Part shown: positions 35,745-61,055 of the stretch, one piece after another
How the letters are laid out: each line of letters starts with the position of its first letter
Position numbering within the stretch: position 1 is the first letter of the stretch
Virus record (IMG/VR): IMGVR_UViG_3300048850_000068
Location: 53,558-117,557 of that record
Direction: 5' to 3' (one strand)
Origin: a virus
Length of the DNA: 64,000 nucleotides
The notes under the pieces: generated by a model
What the model was told of the DNA's origin: nothing
Databases searched by the model: none
The model's input: the letters and a program-made list of their open reading frames with translations, nothing else
Translations under genes and position numbers: made by a program

Positions 35745-35883
35745 CGTATCGTCTCCGTGTAGTGAAGCGTTGTGCTTCGTTGCTGACAACTAAGACAATA
35801 CTGATATCGGTGAGGGATAAAACTGCTAATTACTTAGGCCAGTAGGCAAGTTAAACGGCTGTAGGCCCGCGCTATACACCGCT

Positions 35884-36042
35884 CCATGGCCATATACGCG
35901 TGCGCGTTCTTCTATACTACATGAAACCTCTTGCGCCATGGCACCCCATGGTCTCCCAAGGGCCCGGTTTACCCCTTGGTCTGCCGTGGTGTGCCGCGGT
36001 CTTCCATGGCCCGGAGGATTTCAGCCATGGTCTGTGCCATGG
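35884..36042. repeat. Helically phased CCNNGG boxes
   Basis: 35936, 35946, 35956, 35974, 35984, 35994, 36004 (10-bp steps), plus 35884, 36025, 36037. Confidence 0.7.
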
Positions 36043-36504
36043 AAATTCCCAACGCCTCTCCCTTACTCTTCTATAGGTCAGTAGGTGTAATAGGTAGTAA
36101 GGCGATGGCGTTGGGAATTTCCACGGACGTCTCATGGAATGCCACCCGGGACGCGGCTGATCCCTAGTCGGCTCCTGCGGCCTTACCTAATTTCCGGGAA
36201 GACGCCATGGCGTAGCACGCGGGCAAAAAGAGAGCCGAGCTCCACGTGGGAACCCGGCTCTAAGGTCAGACGGACGAATCGCAGTAGCGCCACCTCAGCG
36301 GCAACCGGGGACCTGCGGACGTGCCGCCCTGTCAGCGAACACAGAGAGAAGCGCGCCCCTCGCTCGCGCATCGCTCAACATGTGTCTTGTGACTGAGATC
36401 GGGATGGAGTGCAACCGGACAGGTGAGGCCTTTGGGTGGTGTGAAGAGGCGGGGAGGCGCCGCGCCTCACACTGTTTCTACCCTCTCTTACGCACACCCC
36501 TCAC

Positions 36505-36990
36505 ATACGCTCTCTATAGACCACTCTCTAGGCTTACGTGTCTCTATAGCCCGGTGCCTTATGCCCAACGCCGTCTGCTTACTATAGATACATACTACTA
36601 GGTCTATAGAAGAGTAGCGCGAAGGCTCTGGGAATTGATCTCTCCGGAATATGTATCTTTCCTTGGTTTGTAAGGGCTCCGGTCTATAGAGCTGTCTTGG
36701 TCTCTATAGAGAGTGTGATGGGTCTGAGAGCTATTCCGGTGATCAGGTCTCTATAGAGAGTTCTGTCTCTTTCATGTCCTAGAGCCGGGTAGGATTCTGG
36801 TCTGTGTGTAACTCTATTCGAGGTTTAGATTTTGGTTTACAGACCCCTCTTTTATTTTTGGGCCTGATTTCATAAACCATTGTAAACCGGAATGCCTTAT
36901 TTCGATTTAGGTTGTTCCGGTTCGAGGTTTACGTTTTGGTTTATGGTTTATATGCCTAGCCTGCCTCAGCCGGACGCCTGTAAACCATGG
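36505..36990. repeat. Non-coding region with TCTATAGA and GGTTTA/TAAACC repeats
   Basis: About 6 (TC)TATAG(A) boxes in 36510-36760; about 8 GGTTTA/TAAACC in 36820-36990; AT-richer than the rest. Confidence 0.65.
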
Positions 36991-36991
36991 A

Positions 36992-37333
36992 CTAGCGCGT
37001 GGCTGCCTTAAGGCTGAAGGCGGGGAGCCAGTAACAGGTGGGGTTGCCGGTGAGCCGTGAGCACTCATAGGGCTGATCCTCGTAGCTGGTGAGGGTCATG
37101 ACCGTGAGTTCATCGCCCTTCCGGAAGACGGTGCATTCGCCCACCTTGAGCTTGTCGTAGCCGAAGGTCTCGACCGCCTTCAGATCCCGCTGCATGAGAA
37201 GCTGCCGATAGGTTGCGGCGTTCTGGACGTCCTTGCACGCGAGCAGCTCCGTGGGTAGCGGATACTTGACGCCTTGGGCTGCTGCGGGCGTTGCTAGGAG
37301 GGCTAGGCCCAGGAGTGCGGCTCTTATCGACAT
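36992..37333 (-). CDS. Exported hypothetical protein
   Basis: Signal peptide (AAA-Q), four Cys. Confidence 0.65.
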   Translation of the reverse strand: MSIRAALLGLALLATPAAAQGVKYPLPTELLACKDVQNAATYRQLLMQRDLKAVETFGYDKLKVGECTVFRKGDELTVMTLTSYEDQPYECSRLTGNPTCYWLPAFSLKAATR

Positions 37334-37698
37334 GAGTAGATGGATCCTGTTTGTGAGCAGTAGGTGGTGTTTCCCTTTCTGTCTTCGTAGATGGTCGTTG
37401 GCAAGCGGCGTTGAGAGGGAAGGGTTTCGCGATGGTTACGGCCACGGGTGTTGTTCTCCATGATGAGAGCCTCGTCGCCGTCATCGCAAGTCACGGAAGT
37501 TGAATAGCTCCAGCGCTGCACGTAGCAGTCCTTTGCCTGGGCCGTGGTGAACCAGGTGATGAAGATCACGGCAGCCAGAAGGAGCACAGTGAGGATCGGG
37601 TAGCGGTAGTCTGCCTTGGAGCCCTCCTCGCTCCAATACCGGTCCCGACTAAGACAGGTTCCGCATCCACCGCAGCCCGGGCATGGATCGCTACTCAT
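37324..37698 (-). CDS. Membrane-anchored hypothetical protein
   Basis: TM helix, Cys-rich N-terminus. Confidence 0.55.
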   Translation of the reverse strand: MSSDPCPGCGGCGTCLSRDRYWSEEGSKADYRYPILTVLLLAAVIFITWFTTAQAKDCYVQRWSYSTSVTCDDGDEALIMENNTRGRNHRETLPSQRRLPTTIYEDRKGNTTYCSQTGSIYSCR

Positions 37699-58685: not shown

Positions 58686-58857
58686 GCTGTTTGCTCCAAG
58701 TTTTCCACTGCCTTTGCGAGAGGCACAATCTCGTCGGCGATTTCGAATTCGTCCGGATAGACAAAGCGATCAAGGACGGGATCCCAAGACGGATACTTAC
58801 CCTCGCGCCGGCGTCCTTCGACAATCGCCTGCGCCTCTTTGTCTTTCAGGTCCTCAA

Positions 58858-59379
58858 TCATAGATGCGTCCATGTCTTCCTCGCTCGAATATCTTTCAGG
58901 GTCTTCATGCTTACTGATTTCATTATAGCGATTTCGCTAAGGGATGCTTCCGGCGCTGCGCGGATTTCTTCAACATCCAGCGCCGTTAGCTTCGCATTGG
59001 CGTTCGAGGAACCTCTGGTCGCCTTCAAGCCCGTCTCGTAGGCGTGCTTTTCCTGCTCGGCGCGGGTCGCCCATTCCAGATTGGATTCCCAGTTGTGCGC
59101 CTTCACACCGTCCTTATGATTGACCTCGGGCTTGTTCTCCGGGTTCGGGATATGAGCGAGCGCAACCATGCGGTTGACCAGCACGCTCTTGACGATCCCT
59201 TCGAACGTCATGGTGAAGTAGATGCGGCCCGTCTTCTTATGGGTCGAGGGCGTCACCTTCTTGTAGATGCGCTTCCCATTCTCCGTGCGCTTGTGCTTCC
59301 AGATCGTGCCGTCCTTCTTGGCGACATAGACCCGTTGCTTCAGCGCACGGAGAATCCAGGCGTCCTTGTCGAATGCCAT
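58858..59379 (-). CDS. HNH homing-type endonuclease
   Basis: VNRMVALAHIPNPENKPEVNHKDGVKAHN..NLEW; C-terminal AKLT..HTH. Confidence 0.85.
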   Translation of the reverse strand: MAFDKDAWILRALKQRVYVAKKDGTIWKHKRTENGKRIYKKVTPSTHKKTGRIYFTMTFEGIVKSVLVNRMVALAHIPNPENKPEVNHKDGVKAHNWESNLEWATRAEQEKHAYETGLKATRGSSNANAKLTALDVEEIRAAPEASLSEIAIMKSVSMKTLKDIRARKTWTHL

Positions 59380-59595
59380 CAGTCGTGATCCGGGTAGGAC
59401 ATGCCGAGATATTGCATGTTGGAGCGGCGATAGACCTGCCAGCCCATCGAGAAGGCGTGCCAAATCAGAACTTCTGTCGGAGTGACCACGGTATAGCCAC
59501 TGCGACGGATCCATTGCTCGCGGGAGAACCGCTCGTTCATGTGTTCACCAGGTCCACAAAGAACATCACGAGCCCGAGCAGCACGACGAAACCCA

Positions 59596-60392
59596 TCACC
59601 AGAGATCCTCGCTGAAGAGATACGTATTCACGCCACCCTTGAGGAGCTGCTTGGCCTCGGTCGCAATCCAGCCGGCAGTGTCACGGTCGACGAACACGCC
59701 CTTGTCCGTGATGAAGCCCTGCTCGGCGCCGGGAATTGCGTTGCCGACGGCAGCCATCGCATGAAAGGCGTTGTGATGACGGCCCGGAGCCTCGGTTGTA
59801 ACGATCAGCGGCAGCATAGGCTCACCGTTCGGATAGAAGAGGTTTGAGACGCGCAAGGCTGCGGCGACAATCCGCGTGCCATACTTCTCGCGCTGCTCCT
59901 CCTTCCAGGCCTTCGCCATATAGGCGAGGCGCTCGCGCAGGTGATACATTTGCTCATGATCCCGTGGCCCGGCAGCCCACTCGCTCGCAGCGTTAACAGG
60001 CATCTTTACGCCGAACATGTCCTGCAGGTCCAACTGCGTGATCGGGGCGTTCCAGCAATCGTCACACTTGGGATTGCGCTTCTCGCTCTCGTAGGTCGCG
60101 CCACAGCAGACGCAATTACCCATGTAGTTGCCCGGGAAGAGGGTGCTGCGCTTCACGTTTTTCCAATCGAGCTTCATTTGCCCTCCAATGCCTTTCTCAC
60201 GGCATAGATCGTGTCGGAGACGTCTTTCGGGACCAGGCCCATCGTGCAATCGGTGATGACGTTCACGATCAGGATCAGGCCTTTGTCGGTGAGCCTGCCC
60301 TCGCCGTGGGCGTGCATGTAGTGGTGGAGGGTCTCGAGGGACTTCCTCGAGAGCTCCTCTTGCATCGTGGGCCATTCATTGTCGGCCGGCAT
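59596..60392 (-). CDS. Two hypothetical ORFs (59596-60177, 60174-60392)
   Basis: Coupled; the first has CxxC pairs and QGFIT..G.FVDR..LFSEDLW. Confidence 0.55.
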
Positions 60393-60395
60393 GGC

Positions 60396-60971
60396 TTAGA
60401 ACACCGGAATGTTGCGGGACCCGGCGAGGTCGTGGAAGCGCTGCAAGAACATCCCCTTCGCCTGCTCCCAGCTCCAGCCGTGAATGATGCCCGGATAGAT
60501 CAGGCTGCGGTCGTGCATGCCGGCGCTCGCGGCGCCCTGGATCACGATCTGATCCCATTCCGCGGCCGTCACAGCCTCGTCGGCCCGCTTAACCGATGCA
60601 GGGTAGGGGAAGCGCAGATTGAAGCGCTTGGCGATCGCCTCTTCGTTGAGGTGCTCGACCTTGCGGAAGGGCGTGGCGAACTCGTCGTCATACTTGAGCG
60701 GCCGGATCAGGTCGCCGTTGTAGGCTTCCGAGCCGTCGTGCATGAGACCCTCGAGGGCGTCTTCCGGGTCCGTCATCAGCGAGACGTAGTAGGAGTGTTC
60801 CGCGACCGAGTAGTAGCGCTTCACCGAGCCGTTCCAGCGAACCTTCATCGCCAGGTGATGCGCGATGGTCTCGATGTTGACCTCTTCCGGGCGGGGATCG
60901 AGCGGCCAGTAGGGCAGCCCGGCTGCGGTGCTCATGAAGTGGCCGCGACGAATTGGGGTCTGGGCGTTCAT
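60396..60971 (-). CDS. HD-domain phosphohydrolase (YfbR/5'-deoxynucleotidase-like)
   Basis: YSVAEHS, LMHDGSEAY.GD, VKRAD. Confidence 0.88.
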   Translation of the reverse strand: MNAQTPIRRGHFMSTAAGLPYWPLDPRPEEVNIETIAHHLAMKVRWNGSVKRYYSVAEHSYYVSLMTDPEDALEGLMHDGSEAYNGDLIRPLKYDDEFATPFRKVEHLNEEAIAKRFNLRFPYPASVKRADEAVTAAEWDQIVIQGAASAGMHDRSLIYPGIIHGWSWEQAKGMFLQRFHDLAGSRNIPVF

Positions 60972-61055
60972 TTCGTGTCCTCGTGCTGTGCGCGTTCTCT
61001 TAAGTCAGTAATGACTTATAGCAGAGAACGCGCGGATTGAAAGTGGGAAGTGCGA

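Follow-up and report, generated by a model that had tools for sequence, protein, structure and literature searches.

The first-step-transfer region of bacteriophage T5 is not known to contain EcoRI sites, and the promoters of vertebrate CpG islands differ in one dinucleotide, the target of a DNA mark, which is retained there in unmarked form. Toxin-resistant transcripts are found in the ACA-less mRNAs that persist under MazF and the GCU-poor mRNAs that persist under MqsR, and in the Alc/hydroxymethylcytosine system of bacteriophage T4, where every cytosine is replaced, base chemistry decides whether RNA polymerase uses a template. The avoidance of restriction sites in phage genomes has also reportedly been studied. 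Depletion of protospacer-adjacent motifs (PAMs) in phage genomes is treated in two papers (PMC4246573, PMC12174588), and Davison proposes in a preprint (bioRxiv 10.1101/866236) that host DNA is destroyed by a phage nuclease whose sites are missing from the first-step-transfer DNA of T5. Here, we describe the exclusion of GG and CC from promoter cores, and from a gene island at 32907-34525, in a viral genome (IMG/VR record IMGVR_UViG_3300048850_000068) of which a stretch of 64,000 nucleotides, hereafter the window, was analyzed. The window corresponds to bases 53558-117557 of a single 117,557-bp contig with 61% G+C, and coordinates are those of the window unless otherwise indicated. That a dinucleotide is locally and absolutely excluded from promoter cores strongly indicates selection. 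As to its meaning, we tentatively favor the view that the GG/CC-free zones are the cores of about two dozen related early or early/middle promoters, and that a factor present in the cell and reading the GG:CC step is incompatible with initiation.

As in CpG islands, the promoters differ from the bulk of the genome in one dinucleotide; here, however, the dinucleotide is removed, and a mark is hypothetical. The likeness to MazF and MqsR is that genes devoid of a short word would stay expressed under a word-specific factor, at a cost in the choice of amino acids, but those systems act on one strand of RNA whereas both strands and untranscribed promoter DNA are purged in the present case. T4, in turn, does not purge its sequence; here the sequence is purged and base replacement would be hypothetical. 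Known motif depletions likewise reflect selection against a short DNA word, CC being the type I-F PAM, yet they are statistical and genome-wide, unlike the total, local and promoter-anchored purge reported below, in which the zones are flanked by the very word they lack.

Layout and inventory of the putative promoter zones

Read on the gene strand, the promoters share a layout in which a box (consensus CCGnnnGCAATCC), taken to be a -35 region, is followed by a 12-14-nt spacer, a -10-like element, often a palindrome, and the leader. GG/CC-free DNA begins at the last C of the box and continues through the spacer and the -10-like element, past the presumed start and into the leader, usually ending at the GAGG or GGAG of the ribosome-binding site before the start codon. 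Relative to the presumed start, the zone is predicted to extend from about -28 to +15..+30 and would cover, besides the spacer and the -10 element, the region of opening, the DNA transcribed first and the duplex further downstream that the enzyme holds. The -10-like element reads gCTATAa in class A promoters, 12-14 nt after the box, and tGCGACAg, in the same place and with GTCAGCA 6-8 nt further on, in class B promoters. As in bacterial sigma-70-type promoters, an element similar to TATAAT thus stands at a set distance from an upstream element. At five class B sites (39035, 39483, 43979, 50799 and 52552), an imperfect inverted repeat, TGCGACA-N5-9-GTCAGCA, lies over the -10 position and may represent an additional operator or be recognized by a different sigma factor.

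The palindrome, AAGTCAG-NN-CTGACTT, has a looser form, AGTCA-N3-5-TGACT, with 37 matches in the genome. It occurs in most intergenic regions of the early and structural modules alike (in the window, for example, at 4163, 9147, 15760, 19461, 27676, 33190, 47406 and 61003), and also within the island promoter, in the interval from the -35 to the -10 element. The palindrome probably serves a global regulator as its operator.

Eight GG/CC-free stretches had been listed between 35755 and 61050 in an initial annotation of the window, and all eight are indeed GG/CC-free runs, 41-70 bp long, with ends within 1-3 bp of those given. Their G+C content is 0.44-0.59 and each holds 7-14 CG/GC, in agreement with their earlier description as CG/GC-rich like the island, while 5.2-9.5 GG/CC would be expected from their own composition. 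GG/CC-free sequences made up a fraction of 0-0.002 among 20,000 shuffles of each run, a post hoc figure. The same interval contains 18 runs of at least 40 bp, i.e. ten more than had been listed, and five of these ten display the same box-promoter layout. The trait is genome-wide and extends beyond 35755-61050.

On the minus strand, a 54-bp zone (35756-35809) lies upstream of the 294-amino acid gene at 34863-35744, behind a weak box, and ends at the ribosome-binding site. Class A is represented by a 70-bp zone at 56359-56428 (-10 element gCTATAt), which follows a CCGACCGCATTCC box, and by a 55-bp zone at 60980-61034, which follows a ..TTTCAATCC box and holds the palindrome; both are on the minus strand. 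Class B zones on that strand are found at 39023-39063 (41 bp, with tGCGACA then GTCAGCA; exact CCGCATTCCG box at 39067-39076 and a GG in the spacer at 39063/39064), 39455-39516 (62 bp; exact box at 39515-39524), 50790-50831 (42 bp; exact box at 50830-50839) and 52539-52584 (46 bp; exact box at 52583-52592). A 47-bp zone with the class B operator-like repeat (43965-44011) occupies the divergent region between the genes at 43575-43955 (minus strand) and 44042-44800 (plus strand). Further minus-strand zones are located at 42599-42641 (43 bp, after a CCGCCCGCAATCC box), which was absent from the earlier list, at 47398-47444 (47 bp, after a CCGCTCGCATTCC box and holding the AAGTCAG..CTGACTT palindrome), at 48608-48650 (43 bp, after a CCGCTCGCAATCC box), at 49922-49984 (63 bp, after a variant box, ..CGCAACC) and at 58901-58941 (41 bp). 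The last has a box-like end plus GCTATAAT and falls inside the called open reading frame (ORF) 58858-59514, the start of which is probably mis-called.

The initial annotation had placed a CCGCAWTCCG box before each run. This word is exact at four of the eight listed sites, and the other four have degenerate boxes. The window holds five exact copies, all on the minus strand; a run follows directly at 39515, 50830 and 52583, and after one intervening GG at 39067. The remaining copy, CCGCAATCCG at 24443-24452 (minus strand), lies inside a coding region, and the run after it is just 4 bp long; it serves as a negative control, showing that the word alone does not bring a run. Box matches were then counted with a position weight matrix (PWM score of at least 9, no more than 130 nt upstream of a same-strand gene start), a run being scored from 35 bp upward. 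Twenty of 27 matches are followed by such a run, a twenty-first (39068) is broken by one GG, and the remaining six have no -10-like element. This count is partly circular because the box model was built from the runs found first. An independent anchor is provided by GCTATA, which falls in runs of at least 40 bp at 13 of its 18 noncoding occurrences vs 4 of its 18 coding ones. The 21 spacers are all distinct, with a mean pairwise identity of 0.30, and the pattern was thus not inherited from one copied element.

Box promoters lie upstream of the DNA-metabolism and small-gene modules throughout the genome, the 53 kb beyond the window contributing a further ten. They are missing from the structural module, the intergenic regions of which have no box but do have the palindrome, terminator hairpins and many GG/CC. 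Because this intergenic DNA holds GG/CC, the runs are tied to promoters and not to noncoding DNA generally. From the nature of the genes downstream, it is a reasonable inference that the promoters are early, or early/middle.

Departure from chance and the level of the constraint

Run lengths were compared with a genome-wide first-order Markov model, with shuffles of 50-bp blocks, and with noncoding segments shuffled within themselves (1000 shuffles). The Markov check, which the initial annotation had proposed, gave a divided answer: runs of at least 40 bp are at chance level genome-wide (53 vs a mean of 47.9), whereas runs of at least 50 bp are in excess (24 vs 10.9), and the longest simulated run reached 90 bp compared to 1373 bp in the island. 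Block shuffles yielded 27 runs of at least 40 bp where 53 are observed. In noncoding DNA, 25 runs of at least 40 bp compare with 6.7 ± 2.4 in the self-shuffled segments (maximum of 16 in the 1000 shuffles), 14 of at least 50 bp with 1.8, and 6 of at least 60 bp with 0.5; the runs are therefore longer than intergenic DNA of the same composition would give, the opposite of the outcome that had been named beforehand as fatal to the claim. When the 20 promoter zones are pooled (1067 nt), there is no GG where 54.0 are expected and no CC where 46.3 are expected, alongside 137 CG/GC; the genome as a whole contains 18,092 GG/CC (rho 0.82). A run length of 40 bp is by itself weak evidence, whereas placement and local composition are strong evidence.

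It could be argued that nothing special is at work, A+T-richer promoter DNA and conserved motifs simply happening to be free of GG/CC. The Markov-like number of runs of at least 40 bp is in line with this, as are the 16 of 51 runs of 40-199 bp that lie in coding DNA, a chance-like share, and the presence of conserved motifs (the -10 element, the palindromes) in which GG/CC does not occur. However, noncoding runs are several-fold more numerous than in shuffles of the same composition, the variable spacers and leaders are purged as well as the conserved motifs, the relative pAMS5a, a Methylobacterium plasmid with 65% G+C, has 17 runs of at least 60 bp vs 0.5 expected, and a relative devoid of the island shows no excess. 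This explanation, largely refuted, is barely credible.

The position of the purge bears on the molecule concerned. Over 21 promoters, the 14 nt that follow the box, upstream of the -10-like element, contain a single GG/CC vs 37.6 expected. Since this spacer is presumably untranscribed, the constraint would act on double-stranded DNA at the polymerase site, and the absence of both GG and CC points the same way, as one duplex rule replaces two RNA rules. At no fewer than three promoters, the last 22-60 nt ahead of the start codon lie outside the run, and this remainder of the leader contains GG/CC again. In pAMS5a, conversely, the run crosses the start codon in 7 of 17 leaders, the ribosome-binding site itself being without GG. 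GG/CC abounds in the coding parts of the transcripts that have GG/CC-free leaders. Zones that stop before the start codon, ribosome-binding sites that can do without GG, and coding parts full of GG/CC all argue for a constraint at the DNA level. The pAMS5a starts in question (L005, for example 2711, 6415, 7382, 13030, 13692, 16159 and 17803) are preceded by purine-rich, GAGAG-type ribosome-binding sites.

An RNA- or translation-level origin would make the DNA pattern a by-product, either of leaders avoiding GG (false ribosome-binding sites, CsrA-type GGA) and CC (anti-Shine-Dalgarno pairing), or of a ribonuclease cutting at GG/CC. Most zones do end exactly at the GAGG or GGAG before the start codon, the island genes have no GG-containing ribosome-binding site, and the phage encodes the RNA-repair functions RtcB and a PNKP-type phosphatase. 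Yet the spacer upstream of the -10-like element is purged just as thoroughly, GG/CC returns within leaders, GG is dispensed with in the ribosome-binding sites of the seven pAMS5a leaders, and the GG/CC-filled coding parts of the same mRNAs would be cut by a ribonuclease anyway; two rules would also be needed where a single one for duplex DNA suffices. We consider an RNA-level origin unlikely.

Mutational erosion is a further alternative: CC-preferring deamination of single-stranded cytosine, or oxidation of the 5' G of GG, could deplete both words in frequently opened DNA. Strand opening does take place at promoters, and G+C is lower in the zones (0.43) and in the island (0.47-0.51) than in their surroundings (0.61). 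Such a process should spare the template strand, as only the non-template strand is exposed, but both strands are equally purged, and so is the double-stranded spacer. The zones have boundaries defined to the single base, CG and GC are more frequent than composition would give, and the maintenance of ORFs and of a well-folded island protein points to selection rather than decay, rendering erosion highly improbable.

The island, its genome and its relatives

The island (32907-34525, plus strand) is a promoter-to-terminator unit of 1619 bp with a single GG/CC, which divides it into GG/CC-free segments of 1373 and 246 bp. It contains three ORFs (33350/33374-34021, 34100-34288 and 34291-34455) and a terminator at 34464-34493. 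With a rho of 0.01 for GG/CC and of 1.6-1.9 for CG and GC, it is under the same constraint as the promoter zones. The codons GCC, ACC, TCC and CGG are absent, and none of the three proteins, the largest of 216/224 amino acids, contains Gly, Pro or Trp. Homologues of the largest protein were compared at identities down to 40%; 35 of the 53 are without Gly, Pro and Trp, and Trp occurs in none. Its AlphaFold2 (AF2) model has a predicted local distance difference test (pLDDT) score of 95.3 and features a winged helix in the C-terminal half, the match to which is generic only (VIA, Z 8.4, root mean square deviation of 2.6 over 77 residues); Foldseek returned nothing at E <= 0.001. A tblastn search with the protein against phage records gave no match and a single-sequence scan of viral contigs no relative, whereas an alignment-based scan of viral contigs did find relatives.

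The island is located between the partition genes and two repeat arrays. The arrays, at 34540-34628 (five exact CCATGTGGC plus variants) and 35884-36042 (six CCATGG-centred repeats), flank the 294-amino acid gene and are very rich in GG/CC; they look like iterons or a partition site.

The contig ends overlap by ~80 bp, which indicates a circular assembly. One soil metagenome run contains the entire stretch and probably represents its source. PHROGs, Pfam and NCBIfam searches revealed a siphovirus structural module (J-like tail protein, tape measure, portal, large terminase) and a large DNA-metabolism module (PolIII alpha, DnaB-like helicase, primase, ligase, RecA, SbcCD-like proteins, ribonucleotide reductase, ThyX-like protein, dUTPase). 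Other genes encode a sigma-like protein (L002:9567-10178), CobS/CobT-like proteins, ParA, ParB_N, RtcB, the PNKP-type phosphatase, a 5'-deoxynucleotidase-like protein (60399-60971) and rIIB. The portal shares 55-57% identity with those of Rhizobium phages RHph_N1_10 and RHEph10, and ~50% with those of SSU5-like Klebsiella, E. coli and Salmonella elements and of Pseudomonas phage nickie. Portal and terminase kinship, a size within the ~105-120 kb range, the siphovirus module and the partition genes are all features of the SSU5/RHEph10/Nickievirus phage-plasmids, and the genome is a phage-plasmid related to SSU5 and RHEph10. No near-identical phage record was found for window positions 30000-40000, and Rfam and tRNA scans of the window gave no match. 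PolIII alpha (L002:5027-8389, i.e. genome 22027-25389) has a uracil-DNA-glycosylase-like domain (Pfam UDG, residues 986-1071) at its C-terminal end. Five soil metatranscriptome contigs of 151-161 nt are identical to 33977-34251 (part of the island), 37345-37505, 39915-40065 and 40199-40349, DNA carry-over being possible.

The island was found in 11 of 13 distinct loci, once in a leaky and once in a partial form; these loci belong to a Rhizobium phage, two 117-kb Methylobacterium plasmids that carry the island gene, a Faunimonas genome and viral contigs. In a whole-genome test, runs of at least 50 bp outside the island were compared with 100 block shuffles per genome. The observed number was reached in none of the shuffles for the genome under study (23 runs vs 5.9), pAMS5a (26 vs 2.1), RHph_N1_10 (30 vs 8.0), G004 (28 vs 13.2) and G002 (50 vs 2.0, fragments of its leaky island being counted in). 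Long runs are thus in excess in five of six island-bearing genomes, that of the window included, whereas the island-less G001 shows no excess (40 vs 36.4). In pAMS5a, 12 of the 17 RefSeq early genes preceded by a gap have a 46-71-bp run that reaches the start.

The constraint can be lost, as shown by the island gene of locus L018, which has regained GCC- and ACC-type codons and 11.1 GG/CC per 100 bp, its protein still having only two Gly and one Pro. No other purged dinucleotide was found in relatives that have lost the trait. The leaky island of G002 (L015:9875-11877) retains 21 GG/CC in 2 kb, of which 20 are GGT, 12 of these within CGGTG; judging from these residual sites, the word read in the G002 lineage seems narrower than GG. 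Residual sites in other relatives are GGC (14), GGT (10), GGA (5) and GGG (5), and a special tolerance of GGT is therefore not seen in them.

Nuclease avoidance and a proposed factor reading GG:CC

Escape from a DNA-cutting defense, or from the phage's own host-DNA nuclease, would explain the purge by the removal of restriction sites, of CC/GG PAMs (CRISPR I-F, II-A), or of the sites of a nuclease similar to T5 A1. CC is the I-F PAM, reported as depleted in targeted Pseudomonas phages in one study (PMC12174588), and Davison's T5 proposal (bioRxiv 10.1101/866236), together with the annotation of an 'A1 protein' in RHph_N1_10, could fit the island. The zones fit less well. Avoidance of restriction or PAM sites should deplete all exposed DNA and leave no PAM beside the protected sequence; here the purge is local, and the zones start after ..TCC and mostly end at GG. 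A site-free zone of 40-70 bp affords no protection on a molecule with ~18,000 GG/CC, and a CC on the 5' side (the box), usually with a GG on the 3' side, is the very PAM arrangement that would target the zone. Other palindromic 4- to 6-mers (GCGC, CGCG, ACGCGT, GATC) are frequent in the island, where the rho of CG and GC rises to 1.6-1.9. Because such short zones cannot protect and PAM-like words flank them, interference with transcription is to be preferred over nuclease avoidance, as the initial annotation had proposed, and the latter appears quite unlikely. To the GG/CC-free operon the zones add a discriminating fact, namely that the constraint follows the site that RNA polymerase binds and opens, and not exposure to a nuclease.

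Davison's T5 model is nonetheless the nearest published idea for the island, by analogy, and leaves the promoter cores unexplained. In both cases the part of the genome that must work first would be written without a short DNA word, and the repeat arrays adjoin that part here; this phage family also has T5-like genes (5'-deoxynucleotidase, dNMP-kinase-like protein, rIIA/B, the 'A1 protein' of RHph_N1_10). Unlike in T5, the word is a dinucleotide and is purged absolutely, also from about two dozen scattered promoter cores that a first-entry model would not predict, and the island contains none of the pre-early genes A1, A2 and dmp but a winged-helix protein and two small ORFs. In this genome, G003 and G004, the island lies away from the contig ends.

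In the mechanism that we tentatively favor, the constraint would act on double-stranded DNA, over the stretch to which RNA polymerase binds and which it must melt and then clear. During infection or lysogeny, GG:CC would be read by a factor of phage or host origin, which could be a covalent mark or else a binding or nicking protein. GG/CC would be kept only where function demands it, in the box and in the ribosome-binding site, and the operon that is purged throughout would be the unit whose expression is required at a time when elongation, too, is impeded by the factor. In a more specific and somewhat more doubtful version, the factor would read bare GG:CC on DNA and block the start of transcription, the phages would have rewritten all early/middle cores as well as the first-expressed operon, and the retained CC may make the promoters dependent on the factor. 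The box reads ..GCAA or ..GACA, with CC where the sigma-70 -35 consensus (TTGACA, 16-18 bp upstream of the -10) has TT; the island's own promoter has TTGACA, with the box promoters having CC at the corresponding positions. Different holoenzymes, or a role of its own for the retained CC, are speculative explanations of this difference.

Several observations weigh against a factor of this kind. The promoters themselves are inferred, and the box promoters all escape a scan of 32800-52700 for the E. coli-type sigma-70 consensus. CC and GG occur in the box and in the ribosome-binding site, within DNA contacted by the polymerase or the ribosome, and GG/CC is thus compatible with some promoter positions. 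The view that the promoter core must lack GG/CC is nevertheless well supported as far as selection on DNA is concerned. Runs of at least 40 bp are no more frequent genome-wide than in the Markov model, as described above. One island-bearing genome, G003, has a 979-bp island and no excess of long runs (8 vs 7.8, with 52 of 100 shuffles reaching the count), its zones appearing shorter, and the island-less comparison consists of one complete genome, G001. L016 and L018 were considered as island-less promoter controls and rejected, as their flanks are short and mostly without the early module. No DNA-modification enzyme was recognized among the Pfam (130 proteins), NCBIfam (58) and PHROGs (24) assignments. 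A DUF4942/methyltransferase-like protein (40189-41970) was considered as the writer and set aside after it was found in none of five relatives searched, an empty result that is weak evidence.

Systems of DNA modification are recognized by a base-modifying enzyme conserved along with the trait, and neither Pfam nor NCBIfam reveals one here, although an enzyme of an unrecognized kind may exist. The 'mark' invoked in the initial annotation thus finds no support, and as a cause it is a hypothesis for which no enzyme can be put forward. Gene-content profiling singled out only a dNMP-kinase-like gene plus a few small or structural genes as shared by five of five island-bearing relatives and absent from one island-less genome, which, with a single genome on the latter side, is a lead and not evidence.

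Searches of the literature, supplementary files aside, returned papers on PAM and restriction-site depletion and no phage paper describing this trait, and we know of no phage or host function that explains the exclusion of a dinucleotide from promoter cores. A hunt for the reader or writer is feasible with ordinary tools in culturable systems, namely the Rhizobium phages and the Methylobacterium plasmid, and the zones offer a sequence signature for the promoters and first-expressed genes of uncultured phages.

GG/CC-free DNA was also noted away from the box promoters. Three adjoining runs (67, 40 and 47 bp; 52749-52903) lie within a 523-bp noncoding stretch that has no box. Similar boxless clusters of adjoining runs are present in long noncoding DNA of pAMS5a (L005:388-537 and 16911-17043), and in several relatives such clusters are preceded by a similar ..GCGTCACAGAGCG.CGG word, with no match in Rfam. 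Two copies of a ~55-bp element (window 21439-21493 and genome 43357-43410) are A+T-rich and GG/CC-free and have GGGAATTCCC-like inverted words on their flanks; one of them precedes the small terminase gene. This pair also exists in RHph_N1_10 (L004:7466-7511 and 21055-21107), and the elements may be late promoters. Finally, 165 bp within a structural gene (12144-12308 in ORF 11757-12515, minus strand) contain only three GG/CC and show shifted Ala codons, and the RHph_N1_10 orthologue of this ORF displays two runs, 79 and 72 bp long, in the corresponding position (L004:31200-31382).

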